Part shown: piece after piece, positions 7,276 to 29,329 of the stretch
How the letters are laid out: every line of letters begins with the position of its first letter
How positions within the stretch are numbered: position 1 is the first letter of the stretch
From: Candidatus Heimdallarchaeota archaeon
Lineage (GTDB): Archaea > Asgardarchaeota > Heimdallarchaeia > Heimdallarchaeales > Heimdallarchaeaceae
Reading direction: 5' to 3'
Assembly (NCBI GenBank): GCA_023270155.1
Contig: JAGLTB010000003.1
Span: 1 to 61,500, forward strand
Length of the DNA: 61,500 nt
Made by a program: the position numbers and the translations under genes
The notes under the pieces: generated by a model
Told to the model about the DNA's origin: nothing
Databases searched by the model: none
Seen by the model: only the letters and a program-made list of their open reading frames with translations

Positions 7276-7644
7276 GTGAATTTGAACATAGATATGAATA
7301 AAATATTCAACAGAATTAAAGAGGCTTTTAAACCAAAGAATATTGCGGAAAGAATCAAAAACATGCCAAGGATAGATCAAATTTACTGGTCCAAAGTTGC
7401 AGCAGCAATTCTATTAGGTATAATTTTTGGAGTAAGCAATTTTTCAAACTGGCCAGCAGTACTTGTAATGTTTGCGATATATGTATTGATATCCGGTGGT
7501 TGGTGGCTAGCTGTAAGGAAAACTGAACCAGGAATTAAGATTCGTTCATATTTCTTGAAAGGATTAATGCAATATATGATTACAGCAATTGCTCTGTGGA
7601 CATTAATACTGAACATGATGTATATTCCACCTGCAGACTTCTGA
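7276..7644 (+). CDS. Small polytopic membrane protein (weak EMC6/Rab5ip-like pattern)
   Basis: Amphipathic N-terminus followed by 2-3 hydrophobic helices. The start is uncertain (GTG 7276, TTG 7282 or ATG 7294), and GGTGA lies at 7271-7275. Confidence 0.5.
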   Translation: MNLNIDMNKIFNRIKEAFKPKNIAERIKNMPRIDQIYWSKVAAAILLGIIFGVSNFSNWPAVLVMFAIYVLISGGWWLAVRKTEPGIKIRSYFLKGLMQYMITAIALWTLILNMMYIPPADF

Positions 7645-10140: not shown

Positions 10141-10214
10141 AACTTTCAATAAAGTGTTGGGAGTAGCAGATTCGCACTTTCACAATCTTTATTTTATATT
10201 GGAATATACCTCCC

Positions 10215-10913
10215 TTGGGTTATTCTATGTCAAAACCAAGAAAACATAAAGGAGAGACTATCTATAATTATCTTCCTGAATATCTACCTTCTATTGATAC
10301 CGGGAATCCAATTTTTGTAAAACTACCTTCGGATAGAAAAGATACTAGATTGAAAGATGTTGAAAGAGAAATAATACAATATTGGGAAATCATTCATCCT
10401 CTTGTAAAAGAGTATGTAGTCATGCTAATCAAATATGTAAATGACCTAGGAGAGGGAACAGAAGAAGTTGATCATCTCAAAAGATCTTTAGAGTTGGAAA
10501 TCAATAATTCAGCAGAATTATCAGATGAGAATCGCAAACTGAAAGCTCAAATTTCAGATTTAGTTATTGATAAGAGGGGATTAGATGAGAAAATTCAAGA
10601 TATGATAAAAGCAAGACCTTCAATCACTGCAGAAGAAGTTAATGCTTTGAAAATGTTGACTTCATCACAATACAATGTCTCATCAAACGATCTTGAAAAC
10701 CTATTGAAACAAGCTGTTCAAGAGGTTAGAGAGAGTGAAGAAATTAAGAAAGCGAGAGAAGAGAGAGACAAGATGCAAAAAGAGCTTGAGGATGCAAAAA
10801 AGAACTTCGAAAAAATACAAGCAGAAGTTGGAGAAACGTTTCAGAAACAACTGCTAACAAGTCAAGCTAGAATTGATGAGTTAGAAGAAGAATTAGAGAA
10901 GCTAAGAAACTGA
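10215..10913 (+). CDS. Coiled-coil protein co-transcribed with the Rab-like GTPase
   Basis: An N-terminal segment of about 90 aa that looks globular, then long heptad-like Glu/Lys/Leu-rich sequence to the C-terminus. The stop lies 6 nt before the next gene. Confidence 0.6.
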   Translation: MGYSMSKPRKHKGETIYNYLPEYLPSIDTGNPIFVKLPSDRKDTRLKDVEREIIQYWEIIHPLVKEYVVMLIKYVNDLGEGTEEVDHLKRSLELEINNSAELSDENRKLKAQISDLVIDKRGLDEKIQDMIKARPSITAEEVNALKMLTSSQYNVSSNDLENLLKQAVQEVRESEEIKKAREERDKMQKELEDAKKNFEKIQAEVGETFQKQLLTSQARIDELEEELEKLRN

Positions 10914-10919
10914 TATAAG

Positions 10920-11660
10920 GTGAATAAGTTGACTAAATGGAATTTTAAGGTTGTATTAGCTGGCGATGGTGCTGTTGGGAAGACTTCAATTCGAGAGAGA
11001 TTTATGGGTAAAGGATTTTCTACAGATTATCTTAAAACAATTGGAGCAGATTTTGCTAGCAAAAAAGTAGAGATTGAGGATAATCACATATCCTTCCAAA
11101 TATGGGATTTAGCAGGGCAAGAAAGTTATCAAGCTGTGCGAGGGACATTCTATAAGGGAGCAACTGCAGCGCTTATTGTTTTTGATGTTCAGGATTCTAC
11201 TACTATGACGAATATCAAGAATTGGTTGGAAGAAGCTATTAAAGGTTCAAATAATGGTATTTTAGTCTATTTTATTATTGCAAACAAAGTTGATCTAGTT
11301 GATAGCAGAAGAGTTTCAAGAGAAATGGCTTTAGATTTCTGTACTCGTATAGATGCTGAAACAGGAATTAGATTTTATTATTGTGAGACAAGTGCACTTT
11401 CCGGTCAGAATATTCAAGAAACATTCGATTTTCTAGCTCATAAACTATTAGAAGCAAATAACATTAAAATCCTCACAAAACTTCCTACAGTTGAGGGGAT
11501 TCTGGATACTAGAGAGACGAAACAAGAGGTAATGCTTTCCAATGAAGAATTTGCTTCGAAAAAGGAGTTAGAGGATATAGAAGGCAGAATCAATAAACTC
11601 GAGAAGAAACTAGACACAATGCATGCTATATTAACAAAGATTATTGAAAAAATCCAATAA
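10920..11660 (+). CDS. Rab/Ras-superfamily small GTPase with C-terminal coiled coil, no prenylation Cys
   Basis: G1 GDGAVGKT; switch I TIGADF (Rab-like); G3 WDLAGQE; G4 NKVD; G5 ETSA. The C-terminal 50 aa or so are coiled-coil-like and end in IEKIQ. Start is GTG 10920 or TTG 10929, after GGTGA at 10918. Confidence 0.9.
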   Translation: MNKLTKWNFKVVLAGDGAVGKTSIRERFMGKGFSTDYLKTIGADFASKKVEIEDNHISFQIWDLAGQESYQAVRGTFYKGATAALIVFDVQDSTTMTNIKNWLEEAIKGSNNGILVYFIIANKVDLVDSRRVSREMALDFCTRIDAETGIRFYYCETSALSGQNIQETFDFLAHKLLEANNIKILTKLPTVEGILDTRETKQEVMLSNEEFASKKELEDIEGRINKLEKKLDTMHAILTKIIEKIQ

Positions 11661-11663
11661 AGG

Positions 11664-12977
11664 CTATTTAGTAACCTTTGTTCCACAATCAGTACAAAAT
11701 TCCGCTCCATCAATTAATATTGTTGAGCAGGTTGGGCACAATACTTCTCTTTCAGGATGATTACTAAAAACATCTTCAGTATCATCGTTATTCTTACCAA
11801 TTGTTTTAGATTTCACTTGATTTTGTATCCACATTACATCTGGGGGTTCAATATAGTCTAGCATAAGCTTCTCATAATAAGCAAAAGTGTTAACATCACT
11901 TAAGGAAACGAAAGCAAAATTCAGGGTTAGAAGTATTGTCATAAAAACGAATAGGATGACACTCCAAGTGGAAATTGTAGGTTCTAAAGCGGGTGAGAAA
12001 AGACCTGAAAATGCTTCAATTACAAAACTTAAGCTCCCTATTATGAAAACAGAAGGTAACAGAAAGGTGAAACCAATTAATTCAAGACTCCTTTTTATGC
12101 TTAACTTGGGGAATTGACCTGCATCATGCAAATTCTGTAGCAAGCTTGATTCTCTTAAAGAACTTAGAACCTTCGAGATTCTTAAGGGAGGAGAAACTAT
12201 GGATATTATAAATACTAATACAAACGAAAGAGCATAAATTGTAGTTGTTTGGTTGATAACAGAAGACATACCTCTGATCACACCATAACATGCAGCAACA
12301 ATCAGTCCAATAATTGCAAGATGTATACTCTGTAGAGAGAGATAAGAGAGAAAACTCTTCTTGTTTATCTTAATCCCTATTTCCTTCTTCTTTTCAAGAA
12401 TAACTGCAGTTTTCTGATTTAAAGCGTAAGCTGCTAAAGAAGAAAATACTATAGAGACTAGTAAGATAGAAGGAACCGACCATAAAGATGGTACTAAATT
12501 AAAAACCATTATTCCTATTAAACCAACTTGAAGAAGAAGAAGAATAGCTGATACCAAACTTAATGATCCAATAATAAGCATATCAATGATAGTTAACTTT
12601 TTGATAAGGCTAAAATCGACTCTTATTGGTTTAAAACTATCGTTGTAATTAATTTGCCCTTTCATTTGCAGAGGTATAATAGAATCTGTTAGCTTCCAAG
12701 CATATTGAGAATCTCCTATAAAATCCTCTTCTTGTGCAGCATTTGTTTCAACAGGTTCATCTCTAAAAACCGGTTTATGTGAAGGGCTTTGAAAAGAGTG
12801 ATAAGCAGGATTTGCGGGGCTTTCTGAATTTTCTGAGACCTGGGTCTGAAGCTCAGTACCACATACGGGACAAAATATCACTTTAGGAGGTAATAACGAA
12901 TAGCATATAGGACACTTCTTCATAGAAATGTTACTCACCCAATTTATCTCTTCTTTATTATTTATAGTATTCAGCAA
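11664..12977 (-). CDS. Polytopic membrane protein capped by N- and C-terminal zinc ribbons
   Basis: CPICYS...CPVCG at the N-terminus and CPTCST...CTDCG at the C-terminus. About 8 hydrophobic helices lie between them. Confidence 0.65.
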   Translation of the reverse strand: MLNTINNKEEINWVSNISMKKCPICYSLLPPKVIFCPVCGTELQTQVSENSESPANPAYHSFQSPSHKPVFRDEPVETNAAQEEDFIGDSQYAWKLTDSIIPLQMKGQINYNDSFKPIRVDFSLIKKLTIIDMLIIGSLSLVSAILLLLQVGLIGIMVFNLVPSLWSVPSILLVSIVFSSLAAYALNQKTAVILEKKKEIGIKINKKSFLSYLSLQSIHLAIIGLIVAACYGVIRGMSSVINQTTTIYALSFVLVFIISIVSPPLRISKVLSSLRESSLLQNLHDAGQFPKLSIKRSLELIGFTFLLPSVFIIGSLSFVIEAFSGLFSPALEPTISTWSVILFVFMTILLTLNFAFVSLSDVNTFAYYEKLMLDYIEPPDVMWIQNQVKSKTIGKNNDDTEDVFSNHPEREVLCPTCSTILIDGAEFCTDCGTKVTK

Positions 12978-13083: not shown

Positions 13084-14562
13084 ATGAACGATTCCCCTCA
13101 AGATGAACCTCAAACATTCGCAAGCTTTCTAAATCTAGTTAAAAAACTTGAGAAAGTTGTCCAAGAAACTCCAGAACTATCCATGGGAGAGAAAGAAAAA
13201 GAGGAGGAGGCTAAAGGAATTAGTGAAGATAGATCAGCTTCTGAAGAACTTGCATCAGCACAAATAGTAAAAGAGAGTGAATTGGAAGGAGTTGAAAAAC
13301 ACACTGATAAAATAAAGAAGGAAGATGTGCAAATAAAGACAAATGGAAAAGGTAAGCTGAAAGAAAGTACAATCGAATATTTACTAAAAATAGAGGAACA
13401 ACTAATTCAGCATTATTCAGGTACAGAAGTACAGTTAGAAGATTTTTACTTCAAGATTGAAGATATAAGTGATGAACAGATAGTTAGAAAGATAAAATCA
13501 AAATTTCATTCCATGGAAAACATTTCCCTAAGGAAAAAACTCAATGTAGGATTTCCTTTTGCTTTGTTCAAAATTGATGGAAAATATAAAATCACAGTTC
13601 CTATAAGCACAGGAGAGATGGCAATACCCACATATGTGGAGGGTTCAAGAAAGCATCTTAAACTACAGTCAATTGGAACTAAAGAAATACCAACTTTAGA
13701 CTCAGATGAGATTAACATCTGGAATCAAGCAATGAGTAAGTTGCAGTTAAAAATTACACAGATACTTAATTATAAAGCAAAAGATGACCTTAGTAAAATC
13801 AATCCGGAAAACATTCAATTAGTTGAAGCGGATATTATTACAATTCAAGAATTCATAAAAGGATACGAGAAAAAAATAAAAGATGTAAAAAGCTTCAGTG
13901 TTGAAATTTACAAGTTTTTGGAAGATTTAAAACAAAATATTTCAGATGGAAAGGGGTTATGGAAGGATTTCGAAGAGTTTCTCGAAGCTTCAACAAATCT
14001 TAAAGAGCAAATAGAAAGTCTACAGAAAAAGCACCAAGAATTAAGCAAAGAGACACAGATAGAGTATCTAAAACTTAGAAAAGAACAAAGGCAAATTAAT
14101 GGAAAAACTAAGAGGTATAAGATAGAAGAAAAAAGAGGGAAGGAAATAACAAGAGAAAAGAAAAAAGAATTGGTAACAAATTTGAGAGAATTTCAAAGCA
14201 AAAAAAAGCATCTGCAAAGAGATATTGATAAAACAAAGGAAATTCAAGACACAGTTGATCTATGGAACGAAATTTTACTGACAGAGGACCAGCAAACTGC
14301 TACACAAAAAATCAGAGAAAATTATGATTTAGCTTTGTTTTCATCTATTAATGGATTGTTGGAAGAAGGAGCAAGTGAAGAGATTTTTGGCAATATAAGA
14401 GAATATGAAACATCGATTGATAAGATTACCATTCATGTAATATACATTCCAGCAACCATTTGTGAATTTCGAGCAGTTCAAAAAGAGAAAAAGATTGAAG
14501 GAAAAATAGCATACTTTAATTTAACAAAAGAAATTACCTTCTTCAAACCGACCTTAGTATAA
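13084..14562 (+). CDS. Large Lys/Glu-rich coiled-coil protein, unknown function
   Basis: 492-aa ORF with long charged helical segments and two short regions that look globular. Confidence 0.55.
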   Translation: MNDSPQDEPQTFASFLNLVKKLEKVVQETPELSMGEKEKEEEAKGISEDRSASEELASAQIVKESELEGVEKHTDKIKKEDVQIKTNGKGKLKESTIEYLLKIEEQLIQHYSGTEVQLEDFYFKIEDISDEQIVRKIKSKFHSMENISLRKKLNVGFPFALFKIDGKYKITVPISTGEMAIPTYVEGSRKHLKLQSIGTKEIPTLDSDEINIWNQAMSKLQLKITQILNYKAKDDLSKINPENIQLVEADIITIQEFIKGYEKKIKDVKSFSVEIYKFLEDLKQNISDGKGLWKDFEEFLEASTNLKEQIESLQKKHQELSKETQIEYLKLRKEQRQINGKTKRYKIEEKRGKEITREKKKELVTNLREFQSKKKHLQRDIDKTKEIQDTVDLWNEILLTEDQQTATQKIRENYDLALFSSINGLLEEGASEEIFGNIREYETSIDKITIHVIYIPATICEFRAVQKEKKIEGKIAYFNLTKEITFFKPTLV

Positions 14563-24769: not shown

Positions 24770-24815
24770 AAATCAAAAATAACAGGATAAATCCTGTTTT
24801 CGTTTTTCTTCTTTT
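24770..24815. terminator. Bidirectional hairpin plus T-tracts between convergent genes
   Basis: AACAGGAT-AA-ATCCTGTT at 24781-24798. It is followed by TTCGTTTTTCTTCTTTTT on the plus strand and by a T-rich run on the minus strand. Confidence 0.5.
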
Positions 24816-27778
24816 TAATTTGGTTCTACTATTAATCCTTCTCCGTTTTGAGCATCTATTCTGATTATCAGTGGTTTCTTTGTTCGTACATGCCTTACAT
24901 ATTCCAAATCAGTTACAATTTCCTGTTTTTCCAACCAGTCCCAGTTTATAATCTGATCATCTTTGTTGTATTTGATATGTAGATAACCAATATTAGATGT
25001 CACAATATTATGAAAGAAATGGGTTCCTTGTGAAAAGTCTACTTGGAAACCGTCAAGACCTGCTTCAATAATTATTTTCGCGCTGCTGATATTATTCCAC
25101 TTAGCTGGTATCCCAAGAAATCTATCTGCAGTTCCCCATCTACCAAAACCAATTAAAACAGATTCTGTCTTTGTTTTGAATAAATTAGCATTAACCTGAT
25201 CAATCTCTTCTGCAATCTTAAGTGTCTGTGTTTTATCAAATTTATCAGGTTTCACGAAAATAATATCTCGTAAGTCTTTTCTGATTAAATTACCTGATAC
25301 ATGTGTTGATTGAGCTACAATATTTTTTATATCCGCTTCACTTAGCTCTTCAATCATCATTGCTTCTTGGTAAAGATAGGGCCGAATTTGAAGTATAACA
25401 AACTTATCTTTCTCACCTTTGGATTTCTTGAAATTTCCAGCAAACTCAATTTCAATTGAACTTCCTAGAGCTTTCTCACCCATTGTTAGTATCTTAGTAA
25501 TAATTTTAGCTAGAGGAAAAGTATCCAATTTTAATTGGTTACCAAACGTTATAACTGGAGCTCCTTCATCAAAATATCCTTCTCGTAGAATTTGAGATTG
25601 GACATCATAGGTATCAGCTATATTAGATAGAGTTCTATCCTTAATTGCATCACTTAGATTGTACTTTACAGTATAAGGATCATCTTCCAAAATATCGAAT
25701 GCTTTGTACATTAAATCAATCGCATAGAAGTTTTTCTGACTTAGGTCTAGTAGCATATCAGGTGTTGAATGGTAATTTAATTTAGGATATTTTGGACAGA
25801 ATCTTACTGAAGCCCCTCCATCAAGTATTGTTTTCCCAAGTCCAAGTGCAACGTGTGCAATCCTATCCTCCGGCTTCATATAGTCACCAAATGGGTAGAA
25901 ATTGTAAGATGCGGCTGCACCTGAAAAGTCAGGATAGAACTTGTTATTATGTTCTCTACCTACAACATTCTGAAGAACTACAGCCATTTTTGATTCTTCA
26001 ATAGTATGACTGATAGTTTCAGCATACGTTTTAGCAAGTTTGAGAAAAGGAGATGCATAAACTAGTTTTATAGCAATACATAGTTGCTCTAATCTATCCT
26101 TTACATCAAGACTATTATTAGGTATCATATAGGTGTCAAAGATTCCAGCGAAAGGTTGGTAAGCTGAATCTTCTAAAAGACTAGAAGAACGTACTGCTAA
26201 AGGTCCATTTAAGTCTCTCAAAAGGAAATCCAAATCTTCTCTAAGACTTTTAGATAATTTAGCTTTGACAAAACGCTCTTTAAGTTCTTGATCAGATGCA
26301 TCAGAAAGAGCAAATTTGTACAGATTATTATCCTCCATAAATCTATCAAATTCATCAGTACCAATAACAATAGTCTTAGGTATTTCTATGATAACATTCT
26401 CAAATTCAACGTCAATCATAAAGGAATTTAACAGAAACATTAGAAACGCAAGCCCTCGACCTTTTCCTCCTAGAGAGCCAGGTCTTAGACGTATGAAGAG
26501 AATTTCTGGATGATATGCTTCTCTAGAGAAATCATTTACTATTCCTCTAGTTTTCTCAATTACAACTTCCTTTGTGATCTGTAGGAGAAACGCTCTTAAC
26601 TCATCTTCTGCAAACTCAGAAACTTTTCGAGGTTTAAGCTTTTGTGCAATTTCAAATTCTCCTCTAGCGTTTAACCAGTTTGAGAAATGGTCATTTCTTC
26701 CATGGTAGATGAGAGAACTTTCGGGAACTTTTTCCAATTGCTCATAAAAATCTATGATGTCATTGGCTTTTCCTACAATTTTTCCTTCACTGTCTTTGAA
26801 TATAAAGTCACCAAAACCTACGCTCTCTAGCAACCAATTCCGCAAATCCCAAACCAATCCATGAGACCTTTTGTGAATAAATGAATACCCCTTTTCTTCA
26901 GCTTGCTCTCTGTATTTCTCCTTGCTTGATTGTAGAAGTATAGGGAGGGTTGAGTTTTCTTTGGTAAGCTTCTCAGCAAAGGCAAAACCTGCTGATTTAT
27001 CTAACTCACCATTTCTGGGAAATTCTATATCTAAAATAACCCCCATCACATTTTCCCCATATTTCTCATGATAGGATGCAGCTTCTTCATAAGTCTCAGC
27101 TAGAAGAATTTTAGGTCTGATCCTCATCTTAAGCAAATCTTGAAAATCATTAGTACCTTCTGTTATTAATCTGTGAGTTTGACGCATAAGTTCTCCGTAA
27201 ATTTCAGGTAAGAGAAGAGAGTAAAAACGAATTGAATCGTCAACAAGAATAAAAACCTTAACATCTCCAGTTTTTGTATCATGGTCTGCGTTAAGTTTAT
27301 CTTCTAGATGTTTGATTATCGCAACAAAAAGTTTAGAATCACCATTCCAAACAAAAACGCGATCGATTCCTTTGCGTTTTTCAAAATCAGGTACAAAATT
27401 GATTTCAACAACACTGTTGAGAAGCAGAATCACAGGTATATTTTGTATTTCCTTTACTTGTTCTCCAAAAGAAAACGCATCTATTTCTCCTAATCTCCGC
27501 ATGGTTATGACGAGATCAAAGTTTTTTTCCTTGAGTATGTCAATAGCTTCTTGAGCAGAAGAGACTCTTGTTATTCTAGGCAATGTTCTTAAGTTTAGAT
27601 TTTTAAATTCCTCATAAATTTGATCTGAAAGCCTTCCATCTTCTTCGATCATAAAACTATCATATATACTGGATACTAGAAGCACATTGTGCATTCGCTT
27701 AGACATTAATTCATGAAATATCTTATATTTGGGTTTATAATCAAAGTAGAAACTTTCTTCACCATAGTCTGTAGACAA
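24815..27778 (-). CDS. Two receiver (REC) domains fused to a PEP/pyruvate-binding (PPDK_N, ATP-grasp) domain protein
   Basis: REC2 has DD plus GVILDIEFP. The PPDK_N blocks GGKGRGLAFL and LAVRSSSLLEDS are present. REC1 has T where the phospho-acceptor Asp is expected (FDLVITM). Confidence 0.8.
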   Translation of the reverse strand: MSTDYGEESFYFDYKPKYKIFHELMSKRMHNVLLVSSIYDSFMIEEDGRLSDQIYEEFKNLNLRTLPRITRVSSAQEAIDILKEKNFDLVITMRRLGEIDAFSFGEQVKEIQNIPVILLLNSVVEINFVPDFEKRKGIDRVFVWNGDSKLFVAIIKHLEDKLNADHDTKTGDVKVFILVDDSIRFYSLLLPEIYGELMRQTHRLITEGTNDFQDLLKMRIRPKILLAETYEEAASYHEKYGENVMGVILDIEFPRNGELDKSAGFAFAEKLTKENSTLPILLQSSKEKYREQAEEKGYSFIHKRSHGLVWDLRNWLLESVGFGDFIFKDSEGKIVGKANDIIDFYEQLEKVPESSLIYHGRNDHFSNWLNARGEFEIAQKLKPRKVSEFAEDELRAFLLQITKEVVIEKTRGIVNDFSREAYHPEILFIRLRPGSLGGKGRGLAFLMFLLNSFMIDVEFENVIIEIPKTIVIGTDEFDRFMEDNNLYKFALSDASDQELKERFVKAKLSKSLREDLDFLLRDLNGPLAVRSSSLLEDSAYQPFAGIFDTYMIPNNSLDVKDRLEQLCIAIKLVYASPFLKLAKTYAETISHTIEESKMAVVLQNVVGREHNNKFYPDFSGAAASYNFYPFGDYMKPEDRIAHVALGLGKTILDGGASVRFCPKYPKLNYHSTPDMLLDLSQKNFYAIDLMYKAFDILEDDPYTVKYNLSDAIKDRTLSNIADTYDVQSQILREGYFDEGAPVITFGNQLKLDTFPLAKIITKILTMGEKALGSSIEIEFAGNFKKSKGEKDKFVILQIRPYLYQEAMMIEELSEADIKNIVAQSTHVSGNLIRKDLRDIIFVKPDKFDKTQTLKIAEEIDQVNANLFKTKTESVLIGFGRWGTADRFLGIPAKWNNISSAKIIIEAGLDGFQVDFSQGTHFFHNIVTSNIGYLHIKYNKDDQIINWDWLEKQEIVTDLEYVRHVRTKKPLIIRIDAQNGEGLIVEPN

Positions 27779-28666: not shown

Positions 28667-29329
28667 ATGTCCCAGAGAGAAAATCAAGGTGATGATGCTG
28701 CACTTGGTGGAGAGGTTTACCAAGATTTCACAAAGCATAGGCCATTGTCTGAAAGAGATGCATTGATTATTGAAATGTATGATGAGGGATTGTCTACCTA
28801 CGAGATAGCTGAAATACTTGAAATTAACAGACATACAGCTTCGAAAGTTCTCAAGGAAAACGAAATTCAGACAAGAACAATAGCAGATTATCATAAACTA
28901 AAACATCATGATATTGTCCACTTATTTAAGCAAGGTAAAACAAAACACGAAATTGCTAAAGAATTAAGTATAACATACTATACAGTTAGGAAAGTCTTAG
29001 AGGACAAAGGGTTAGTACTGAATAAGAAAGATAGGGAAACACTTGCCATTGCTAGATATATCCAAATGAAAAACAGGGGATATGAAAATGATGCAATTGC
29101 TATTTTCTTGGACATGACAGAGAAACAACTTAACAGACTAATTCGTAATTCAGGAGTTAATGTTTCAACAGTGAGACATAAATCTAGAAATATAGACGTT
29201 CTACCTGATATAGTTCTGCAATGTTTGAAAGGAATGACTTTATCAAAAATATCAATGAAGTACAAAGTTGATCTTGTTTTAGTAAAAGAAATTCTCTATG
29301 AATTTGGCTTATGCACTCGAAAAAAATAA
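28667..29329 (+). CDS. Protein built from four tandem helix-turn-helix modules
   Basis: Four repeats of about 45 aa: GLSTYEIAEILEINRHTASKVL, GKTKHEIAKELSITYYTVRKVL, GYENDAIAIFLDMTEKQLNRLI, GMTLSKISMKYKVDLVLVKEIL. Confidence 0.6.
   Translation: MSQRENQGDDAALGGEVYQDFTKHRPLSERDALIIEMYDEGLSTYEIAEILEINRHTASKVLKENEIQTRTIADYHKLKHHDIVHLFKQGKTKHEIAKELSITYYTVRKVLEDKGLVLNKKDRETLAIARYIQMKNRGYENDAIAIFLDMTEKQLNRLIRNSGVNVSTVRHKSRNIDVLPDIVLQCLKGMTLSKISMKYKVDLVLVKEILYEFGLCTRKK

Follow-up and report, generated by a model that had tools for sequence, protein, structure and literature searches.

A conserved gene pair of Heimdallarchaeia encoding a Rab-resembling small GTPase and a predicted coiled-coil partner

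Introduction

Prokaryotic small GTPases can be encoded next to dedicated accessory proteins. In Euryarchaeota, the ArvA-ArvB-ArvC system combines a GTPase with accessory proteins of unclear biochemistry, for which roles as guanine nucleotide exchange factor (GEF) or GTPase-activating protein (GAP) have been proposed (Mills et al. 2024, PMC10927574). In Asgard archaea, GTPase genes as a rule do not share operons with regulators, which makes matched pairs rare, and the Rab of Thorarchaeota (Thor-Rab) is described as C-terminally truncated and as lying outside any partner-encoding operon (Tran et al. 2024, PMC10933270). Here, we analyze a stretch of 61,500 nucleotides with a GC content of 34%, hereafter called the window (contig JAGLTB010000003.1, positions 1 to 61,500, from a Candidatus Heimdallarchaeota archaeon), which carries a gene for a coiled-coil protein, termed the partner, followed by a gene for a Ras-superfamily GTPase. 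To our knowledge, Asgard archaea, the closest archaeal relatives of eukaryotes, encode dozens of small GTPases, almost none of which has been matched to a partner, and this scarcity leaves the function of these eukaryote-like switches largely untestable.

In eukaryotes, most Rab-binding domains, such as those of the Rab11-FIP3 and Rab7-RILP complexes and of the golgins, are elongated helical coiled coils, as is the Sec2/Rabin8 GEF of Sec4 and Rab8. Some eukaryotic GTPases, namely Arl13b, Rab44, Rab45/RASEF and Rab46, are themselves multi-domain proteins with a coiled coil that serves in self-association or partner binding; in Rab44, Rab45 and Rab46, it precedes the Rab domain, and these proteins are still prenylated. 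For the locus in the window, we favor the reading, with a probability of about 0.55, that the two genes constitute a co-transcribed GTPase module specific to Heimdallarchaeia, in which the partner is a dedicated binding protein of the GTPase. No description of the partner-GTPase pair was found in a full-text search of the literature.

Conservation of the gene pair

The partner gene (10227..10913, forward strand, 228 aa) and the GTPase gene (10929..11660, forward strand, 243 aa) were followed through a neighborhood survey in which each species was represented by one genome and which covered 28 partner-encoding loci of Heimdallarchaeaceae. The GTPase gene lies directly downstream of the partner gene in 27 of the 28 genomes, and in the remaining locus (L006), the partner of which is 97% identical to that of the window, a 642-aa TnpB/Cas12f-like gene stands between the two. 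This inserted gene (L006:8131-10059, reverse strand; Pfam Cas12f1-like_TNB, 2.3e-7) belongs to a mobile element that splits the operon exactly between its genes. Five more metagenome contigs show the adjacency, which is seen in every metagenome contig that is informative. When the look-up started from two GTPase orthologues, one of them the most divergent at 58% identity, a gene of 228-243 aa lacking any Pfam match was found 11-15 nt upstream.

The surroundings of the pair are collinear in most Heimdallarchaeaceae, in the order NFACT, CDP-alcohol transferase, two small open reading frames (ORFs), partner, GTPase, zinc-ribbon membrane protein, 492-aa protein and ABC transporter. In the two circularised genomes of Heimdallarchaeum, these surroundings are rearranged, but the block of partner, GTPase and zinc-ribbon protein is intact and abuts the homologue of the 492-aa protein. 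Furthermore, a distant partner homologue, P0190, which has 29% identity to the partner in the window and is encoded on contigs of 50% GC, is located between glycosyltransferase and THUMP genes, and in this unrelated neighborhood only 2 nt separate it from a downstream gene for a 266-aa member of the GTPase family. Two arrangements occur in the P0192 lineage: one contig has a GTPase of the family 2.5 kb 5′ of the partner gene, and in a second contig this GTPase is 3.8 kb downstream and on the opposite strand. Conserved co-occurrence had been set beforehand by the initial annotation as the point on which its proposed module would stand or fall, and the adjacency is found in 28 genomes (one of them split by the mobile element), in the informative metagenome contigs and in a distant lineage. 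The pairing is far beyond chance, and the linkage is strong, yet not universal across the class.

Evolutionary constraint was estimated from mean corrected distances over 20 complete loci. The partner has a value of 0.37 and the GTPase one of 0.34, close to the 0.39 of NFACT and the 0.36 of the CDP-alcohol transferase, whereas the values of 0.89 for the zinc-ribbon membrane protein and of 0.85 for the 492-aa protein correspond to more than twice the rate of the pair. Judged from these distances, purifying selection on the partner is as strong as that on the GTPase. The slow evolution of the partner, together with its many invariant polar residues, argues for specific binding surfaces.

Gene organization and expression signals

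Two ORFs had initially been placed on the forward strand at 10215..10913 (232 aa) and 10920..11660 (246 aa), and both are present at these positions. Sequence alignments and the spacer sequences of related loci favor a later start codon in each. For the partner, an alignment of 34 homologues (alignment A1) supports the ATG at 10227, from which the protein begins with MSKPRK, over the alternative TTG at 10215, which would add the residues MGYS. For the GTPase, an alignment of 36 homologues (alignment A2) supports the TTG at 10929, giving a protein that begins with MTKWNFKV, over the GTG at 10920, which would give the 246-aa form; in related loci, the GTPase start codon lies three codons ahead of a conserved Trp. 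These start codons change the intergenic gap from the 6 nt given initially to a spacer of 15 nt (10914..10928, forward strand), in which GGTGA at 10919-10923 is part of a Shine-Dalgarno-like aaGGTGA at 10917-10923. A GGTGA, GAGG or GGATGA sequence is present in the spacer of all related loci, and the spacer length ranges from 8 to 25 nt.

An element resembling a TFB recognition element and TATA box (BRE/TATA), tcacaatc TTTATTTTA, is located upstream of the partner gene (10180..10196, forward strand). Nearly all related loci have the sequence ttcgcaatcTTTATTTTa at a fixed distance 5′ of the partner start, and from its match to the archaeal TATA consensus we infer that it is the BRE/TATA promoter. 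Since no promoter-type element fits into the 15-nt spacer, the partner and the GTPase would most simply be transcribed together from this one promoter. The two genes had been described as translationally linked; the Shine-Dalgarno-like sequence in the spacer and the presence of a predicted promoter only 5′ of the partner gene make it better to call them co-transcribed, with a GTPase cistron that has its own ribosome-binding signal. An Rfam search of the whole window gave zero matches.

The GTPase and its C-terminal extension

The GTPase belongs to the Pfam Ras family (PF00071), which it matches over residues 10-176 with an E-value of 4.2e-43 and a score of 147.2 bits, compared to a gathering cut-off of 21.6. 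Its G domain (residues 6-181 in the 246-aa numbering; 10935..11462, forward strand) contains the complete set of G1-G5 motifs, and the TIGADF of switch I and the WDLAGQE that had been pointed out at first can be read directly in the sequence. The motifs are GDGAVGKT (G1), KTIGADF including T40 (G2/switch I), WDLAGQE (G3), NKVD (G4) and ETSA (G5). The catalytic Gln (Gln67) and a normal P-loop are retained, from which the GTPase is predicted to be competent in hydrolysis and to cycle. An AlphaFold2 (AF2) model was built of an in-frame read-through fusion of both proteins, using an X at the stop codon and an unpaired alignment of the two families; its mean predicted local distance difference test score (pLDDT) is 69 and its predicted template modelling score (pTM) is 0.48. 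In this model, the G domain shows pLDDT values of 80-91 and the strand and helix order expected of the six-stranded alpha/beta G-domain fold.

The top match of the GTPase in a sequence search of the PDB is the Thorarchaeota Rab 7EZB (3.7e-40), and the best 60 matches are Rab/Ypt proteins only. Likewise, a Foldseek search with the modelled G domain yields Rabs throughout its best 50 matches, at target-normalised TM scores of 0.77-0.84; among them are Rab8a, Rab1b, Rab11a, Rab10, Sec4 and Ypt32. Rab7 is also among the nearest eukaryotic relatives by sequence or structure. The initial statement that the protein has no C-terminal Cys for prenylation holds. Its Cys residues are confined to the G domain and its C-terminus reads ...TKIIEKIQ, so there is no prenylation motif, and none of the orthologues in alignment A2 has a C-terminal Cys. 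The RabF1-RabF5 motifs of Pereira-Leal and Seabra, to which PMC10933270 refers, are said to read IGVDF, KLQIW, RFRSIT, YYRGA and LVYDIT, respectively; compared to these, the IGADF and FQIW of the GTPase fit well and FYKGA and IVFDVQ partly, whereas SYQAVR misfits RabF3.

In a published analysis, Asgard Ras-like sequences group with Rab, Ras, Rho and Ran as a whole rather than as sisters of Rab, and no Asgard sequence is specifically sister to the Rabs (10.1101/2024.02.28.582541). The description of the GTPase as Rab-like is therefore kept in a restricted sense. It is justified by the nearest matches and by TIGADF, but with no prenylation Cys, a misfit at RabF3 and published trees that lack Rab sisterhood, the word denotes a resemblance and not a demonstrated orthology. 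Asgard Ras-like proteins that cluster with Rab, Ras, Rho and Ran have reportedly been termed the RasL group by Klinger et al. in 2016, a usage said to be followed by Vargova et al. The taxonomy and similarity of the GTPase are consistent with this group, which is itself defined by phylogeny. The closest database matches of the locus come from Candidatus Heimdallarchaeaceae and Heimdallarchaeum, which supports an Asgard origin, and GTPase homologues of at least 57% identity form approximately 68 clusters, from Heimdallarchaeaceae. In one metagenome contig (L045:3282-3566), the GTPase ORF turns into an unrelated, hydrophobic sequence after approximately codon 32, which reflects a chimeric assembly or a disrupted gene.

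Beyond the G domain, the GTPase was initially thought to carry a coiled-coil extension of about 60 aa. The extension is real and measures 65 aa, but the heptad helix takes up only its last 32-40 aa. The order along the chain is a conserved LLxxNN at the end of alpha-5, a PxxGI[IL]D motif, a variable stretch and a helix of ~32 aa. The variable linker (residues 182-213; 11463..11558, forward strand), as delimited in alignment A2, has mostly low pLDDT. Conserved within it is the motif P-x-x-G-I-[IL]-D (residues 189-196; 11484-11507, forward strand), where a short beta strand is modelled at I194-D196 in the fusion model, which suggests that part of the tail may pack against something. The heptad helix (residues 214-245, also in the 246-aa numbering; 11559..11654, forward strand), which is of coiled-coil type and contains no Cys, was found both by a heptad scan and in the AF2 fusion model, where its pLDDT is 60-78. 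It comprises five heptads with a clean a/d pattern and polar residues (LE.K, T.Q and KK) that are conserved across the family, and alignment A2 shows that it is kept throughout the GTPase family down to 41% identity.

In a neighbor-joining tree built from Asgard GTPase matches only, a sister set at 40-47% identity also retains the C-terminal helix. The helix is thus a trait of the whole GTPase family, which does not require an adjacent partner gene. In several other Heimdallarchaeia lineages, the sister-clade GTPases (P0075, P0098, P0095 and P0093) are unlinked from the partner and have a conserved globular protein of ~209 aa adjoining or one gene off, plus a metallophosphatase. Members of this 209-aa family are encoded at L033:6817-7446 (reverse strand), L004:7301-7930, L034:5156-5779 and L044:7661-8275. 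The 44 detectable members come from Kariarchaeaceae and other Heimdallarchaeota, with none from Heimdallarchaeaceae or the complete Heimdallarchaeum genomes, and ten of them are on contigs that match those of GTPase homologues in length. Searches of Pfam and the PDB returned nothing significant for the family, the best being an unverified match to the Vps23/STP22 C-terminal domain with an E-value of 0.069. Kariarchaeaceae hold the genes for the GTPase, the 209-aa protein and the coiled-coil partner, the last of which is unlinked.

Some further features were observed in these relatives. The sister-clade GTPases P0087, P0095, P0072 and P0096 (~310 aa) have an extra acidic tail past the C-terminal helix, and this tail ends in a conserved FGVPxIPK. 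At the Kariarchaeaceae locus L043, the unlinked partner homologue is 1.5 kb from a 191-aa Ras-family GTPase (L043:5887-6462, reverse strand; 38% identity) that is without the C-terminal extension, a proximity that may be due to chance, and after this GTPase comes a gene for an 826-aa HEAT-repeat protein (L043:3322-5802, reverse strand).

The coiled-coil partner

The AF2 monomer model of the partner, which was obtained with the family alignment, is all-helical, with a mean pLDDT of 70 and a pTM of 0.25. Helices are modelled at residues 44-79, 83-132, 139-152, 157-172 and 175-231. An N-terminal domain of about 90 aa had been assigned to the partner, but no globular domain is modelled in this region; residues 1-40 are non-helical at low confidence and are followed by the five helices. 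These first 40 residues are nevertheless strongly conserved (KGETIYNY...P.F.KLP..KD.RLKD.ERE). Alignment A1 contains 44 invariant columns, many of which are polar residues inside helices, and the conserved motifs of the family are KGETIYNY, YWxxxHP, ENRKLK and FEKTQAEVGETFQKKLL. Distant partners, at 21-30% identity, keep YWxxxHP, an Arg and an Asn, L.E...D and FE+IQ.EV..FQ.

A word-indexed search retrieved 68 partner homologues with 55-93% identity, exclusively from Heimdall lineages, and a profile of the partner run against 1.84 billion cluster representatives gave 16 matches, 12 of them at E ≤ 1e-10. From these searches, the partner is an undescribed protein family restricted to Heimdallarchaeia. 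Searches against Pfam, NCBIfam and PDB profiles found nothing significant for it and returned only sub-threshold matches to generic coiled-coil families. The best E-value against the PDB profiles was 0.1 or worse, and the only match in the scan of the window was a sub-threshold one to intermediate filament, which is attributed to coiled-coil composition. A Foldseek search of the partner model against the PDB gave no match with E <7, the query being a low-confidence model with a pTM of 0.25.

The Pfam matches of the 34 partner members in the alignment were also inspected for families with known roles in GTPase regulation or membrane remodelling. Sec2p and Robl_LC7 are absent from them, and Snf7/PspA, that is, an ESCRT-III/PspA-like profile, is not in the 25 most frequent of the 91 Pfam families matched. 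Rab11-FIP3 is matched by six of the 34 members with a best E-value of 0.0041, which is sub-threshold and stands amid dozens of coiled-coil families; the weak Rab11-FIP3 label on the distant homologue P0190 was likewise checked and dismissed as coiled-coil noise.

A model of the module and its alternatives

The observed gene structure, protein families, conservation and linkage suggest a model in which a complex, its contact surfaces and a cellular role could be as follows. The single BRE/TATA promoter would drive the partner gene, and the GTPase would then be translated from its own Shine-Dalgarno sequence. The partner would be an elongated coiled-coil scaffold that is dedicated to binding the GTPase. 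The C-terminal helix of the GTPase would dock onto the conserved C-terminal segment FEKTQAEVGETFQKKLL...IDELEEEL of the partner, with the flexible linker tethering the G domain, and the G domain would engage the invariant polar patches YWxxxHP, ENRKLK and K..L.EK..D of the partner in a nucleotide-dependent manner. In Heimdallarchaeaceae, the zinc-ribbon membrane protein and the 492-aa protein could be candidates for a membrane receptor and accessory proteins. The parts of this model differ in strength. A dedicated complex of the two proteins is judged somewhat more probable than not, while docking of the helix on the C-terminal segment of the partner, followed by nucleotide-dependent contact of the G domain, is drawn by analogy with Rab effectors and Sec2/Rabin8 and is put forward only tentatively. 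The effector or tether role and the hetero-coiled coil that were considered initially are likewise hypotheses.

Six observations weigh against a dedicated module. First, the partner homologues of Kariarchaeaceae (P0191/P0203) and of the P0194 lineage have no adjacent GTPase of the family. Second, the adjacency is only partly independent evidence, because a 10-gene neighborhood is syntenic in Heimdallarchaeaceae. Third, the sister-clade GTPases keep the C-terminal helix though they are linked to the 209-aa protein and not to the partner. Fourth, the amphipathicity of the helix, with a hydrophobic moment of ~0.5 and a net positive charge over the last 15 residues, would also suit a membrane-binding helix. 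Fifth, no interaction has been predicted; the fusion model is of modest confidence and uninformative on contacts, its partner N-terminus has pLDDT <50 and its partner helices score below those of the monomer model. Finally, a background-corrected distance analysis, which is a crude method, gave a residual correlation between partner and GTPase of 0.49 (Mantel p ~0.001), and such correlations are unspecific; they reach 0.43 for the GTPase and NFACT, 0.62 for the zinc-ribbon membrane protein and NFACT, and 0.67 for the GTPase and the 492-aa protein. With controls so similar, the partner-GTPase correlation is suggestive only.

The third and fourth of these observations lead to another explanation, in which the C-terminal helix would be amphipathic and target the GTPase to the membrane in place of prenylation, or else act as a homodimerisation zipper, and the partner would bind the G domain only or nothing at all. 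The last 15-18 residues of the helix have a hydrophobic moment of ~0.5, a mean hydrophobicity of ~0 and a net charge of +1 to +3, and this analysis is compatible with both a coiled coil and a membrane-binding helix. Archaeal-type lipids are reportedly permissive for the adsorption of amphipathic helices (10.1101/2024.02.28.582541). In addition, a linker followed by a terminal element resembles the hypervariable tail and anchor of Rabs, and conservation of the helix in sister clades without an adjacent partner would be expected. However, the helix is acidic in its N-terminal half, and a narrow a/d stripe with conserved polar residues is commoner in coiled coils between proteins. We regard this explanation as possible but rather doubtful.

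It is also conceivable that the partner would be a regulator of the GTPase, either a coiled-coil GEF such as Sec2, Rabin8 and GRAB or a GAP, in a manner comparable to MglB with MglA and ArvB/ArvC with ArvA. Prokaryotic GTPase operons mostly encode regulators, as in MglA/MglB and ArvABC (PMC10927574), and the invariant polar residues on the long helices of the partner would suit a switch-binding surface. A GTPase that is predicted to cycle from its catalytic Gln and normal P-loop would have use for such a protein. On the other hand, the partner is unlike Sec2p, Roadblock, TBC, DUF2073 or any known GEF or GAP in the sequence and structure searches, and some lineages have it without linkage to the GTPase. 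We regard a regulatory role as unlikely.

The first two observations could be taken to mean that the adjacency is inherited synteny without functional coupling, and that the partner is an unrelated structural coiled-coil protein that shares the transcript by chance. The region from NFACT to the ABC transporter is indeed collinear in most Heimdallarchaeaceae, homologues of the P0191 and P0194 lineages occur without an adjacent family GTPase, and some chance proximity is expected from the many small GTPases of each Asgard genome. Nevertheless, the pair outlasts the rearrangements in Heimdallarchaeum that severed other adjacencies, recurs with a 2-nt gap and wholly different neighbors in the lineage of 50% GC, and is found with its genes <4 kb apart in two arrangements in a third lineage, P0192. 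The purifying selection on the partner, which equals that on the GTPase, also speaks against a bystander, and we consider mere synteny improbable. Expression of both ORFs as one read-through fusion protein is barely credible, for although they share one frame in the window, separated solely by TGA-TAT-AAG, the stop codon varies among TAA, TAG and TGA in related loci, the spacing is in many cases not divisible by three, every spacer brings a Shine-Dalgarno sequence and a start codon of its own, and no fused homologue was found in the homologue and cluster-representative searches.

The dedicated two-gene module thus remains the reading that we favor, and its significance depends on the interaction. 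At this locus, the pair is specific and highly conserved, its two small proteins are expected to be soluble, and its genes occur in both circularised genomes of Heimdallarchaeum. One Asgard GTPase-partner relationship thereby becomes directly assayable, even if it is mechanistically unsurprising. If the two proteins do not interact, the finding shrinks to a conserved orphan coiled-coil gene beside one of many Asgard GTPases. A more far-reaching proposal, which we consider quite unlikely, sees in the pair a prokaryotic forerunner of the logic of Rabs and coiled-coil tethers. The C-terminal helix would substitute for prenylation in keeping the switch on a long coiled-coil scaffold or on the membrane, and the switch would govern what this scaffold captures at the membrane, aided in Heimdallarchaeaceae by the zinc-ribbon membrane protein and in sister lineages by the 209-aa protein. 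If this were true, the pair would be the first matched GTPase-effector system of Asgard archaea and an example of lipid-independent GTPase targeting that predates Rab prenylation.

Flanking genes and other features of the window

Downstream of the GTPase, a convergent gene (11664..12977, reverse strand) encodes a multi-pass membrane protein of 437 aa with zinc ribbons at its N- and C-termini according to Pfam. Its orthologues adjoin the GTPase gene in every Heimdallarchaeaceae locus that reaches past the GTPase, and they are fast-evolving, with 24-44% identity. The next gene (13084..14562, forward strand) encodes a coiled-coil-rich protein of 492 aa, the family of which is unassigned and which shows no similarity in searches of Pfam and the PDB. 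It adjoins the block of partner, GTPase and zinc-ribbon protein; in Heimdallarchaeum, its side and orientation differ, but it is still next to the block. The distant partner-GTPase locus L035 is without either of the two proteins. Both are possible members of the module in Heimdallarchaeaceae.

Three other genes of the window were noted. A 122-aa membrane protein beside NFACT (7276-7644, forward strand) has a match to Pfam EMC6 above the gathering score (27.9 versus 23.3 bits, E 3.4e-6), and its orthologues in L058-L061 have the same weak match; judged from this similarity, it may be a homologue of an ER-membrane-complex subunit. A 220-aa HTH_23 protein (28667-29329, forward strand) shows a sub-threshold match to TnsD (Tn7-like) and may be what is left of a mobile element. 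A 987-aa protein (24815-27778, reverse strand) combines PPDK_N (PEP-utilising, ATP-binding) with a weak match to a response-regulator receiver.

Comparison with known systems

Among proteins of known structure, the closest counterpart of the GTPase is the Thorarchaeota Rab (7EZB), which is also a Foldseek match and which it resembles in the fold and motifs of the G domain and in the absence of a prenylation Cys. Compared to Thor-Rab, the GTPase in the window adds a 65-aa extension, consisting of the linker and the conserved heptad helix, and has a conserved partner gene upstream. With eukaryotic Rabs, it shares the TIGADF of switch I, the GDxxVGK of the P-loop and a layout in which the G domain is followed by a variable tail and then a terminal element. 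Unlike them, it has no prenylation, its RabF motifs are partial and its gene is operonic. A lipid-free linker and helix on a G domain that resembles Rab bears on how GTPases were targeted before prenylation. The partner is elongated, helical and predicted to be a coiled coil, as are Rab effectors and the Sec2 GEF, though it has no significant similarity to any such family. For Arl13b and Rab44-46, the likeness lies in the combination of a G domain and a coiled-coil segment in one chain, which does not imply homology of the helices.

Two prokaryotic systems are comparable at the level of the locus. In ArvABC, as here, an archaeal small GTPase is conserved beside small accessory proteins, one of which has a zinc ribbon. 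However, when the partner, its zinc-ribbon neighbor and the 492-aa protein were scanned against Pfam, neither DUF2073 nor DUF2072 was matched, and the zinc-ribbon neighbor is instead a 437-aa multi-pass membrane protein; moreover, the GTPase is nearer to Rab/Ras than to ArvA, and the gene order differs. MglA-MglB is likewise a two-gene prokaryotic module of a small GTPase with a dedicated partner, but the partner in the window is all-helical in its predicted model, without the Roadblock/LC7 fold or a Pfam match, and the GTPase differs from MglA in its canonical catalytic Gln and Rab-like motifs. What is already known from these systems is an ordinary Ras-superfamily G domain and small-GTPase operons with a dedicated accessory protein. 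What is new at this locus is an accessory protein from an undescribed family, together with an unusual lipid-free C-terminal module on the GTPase.

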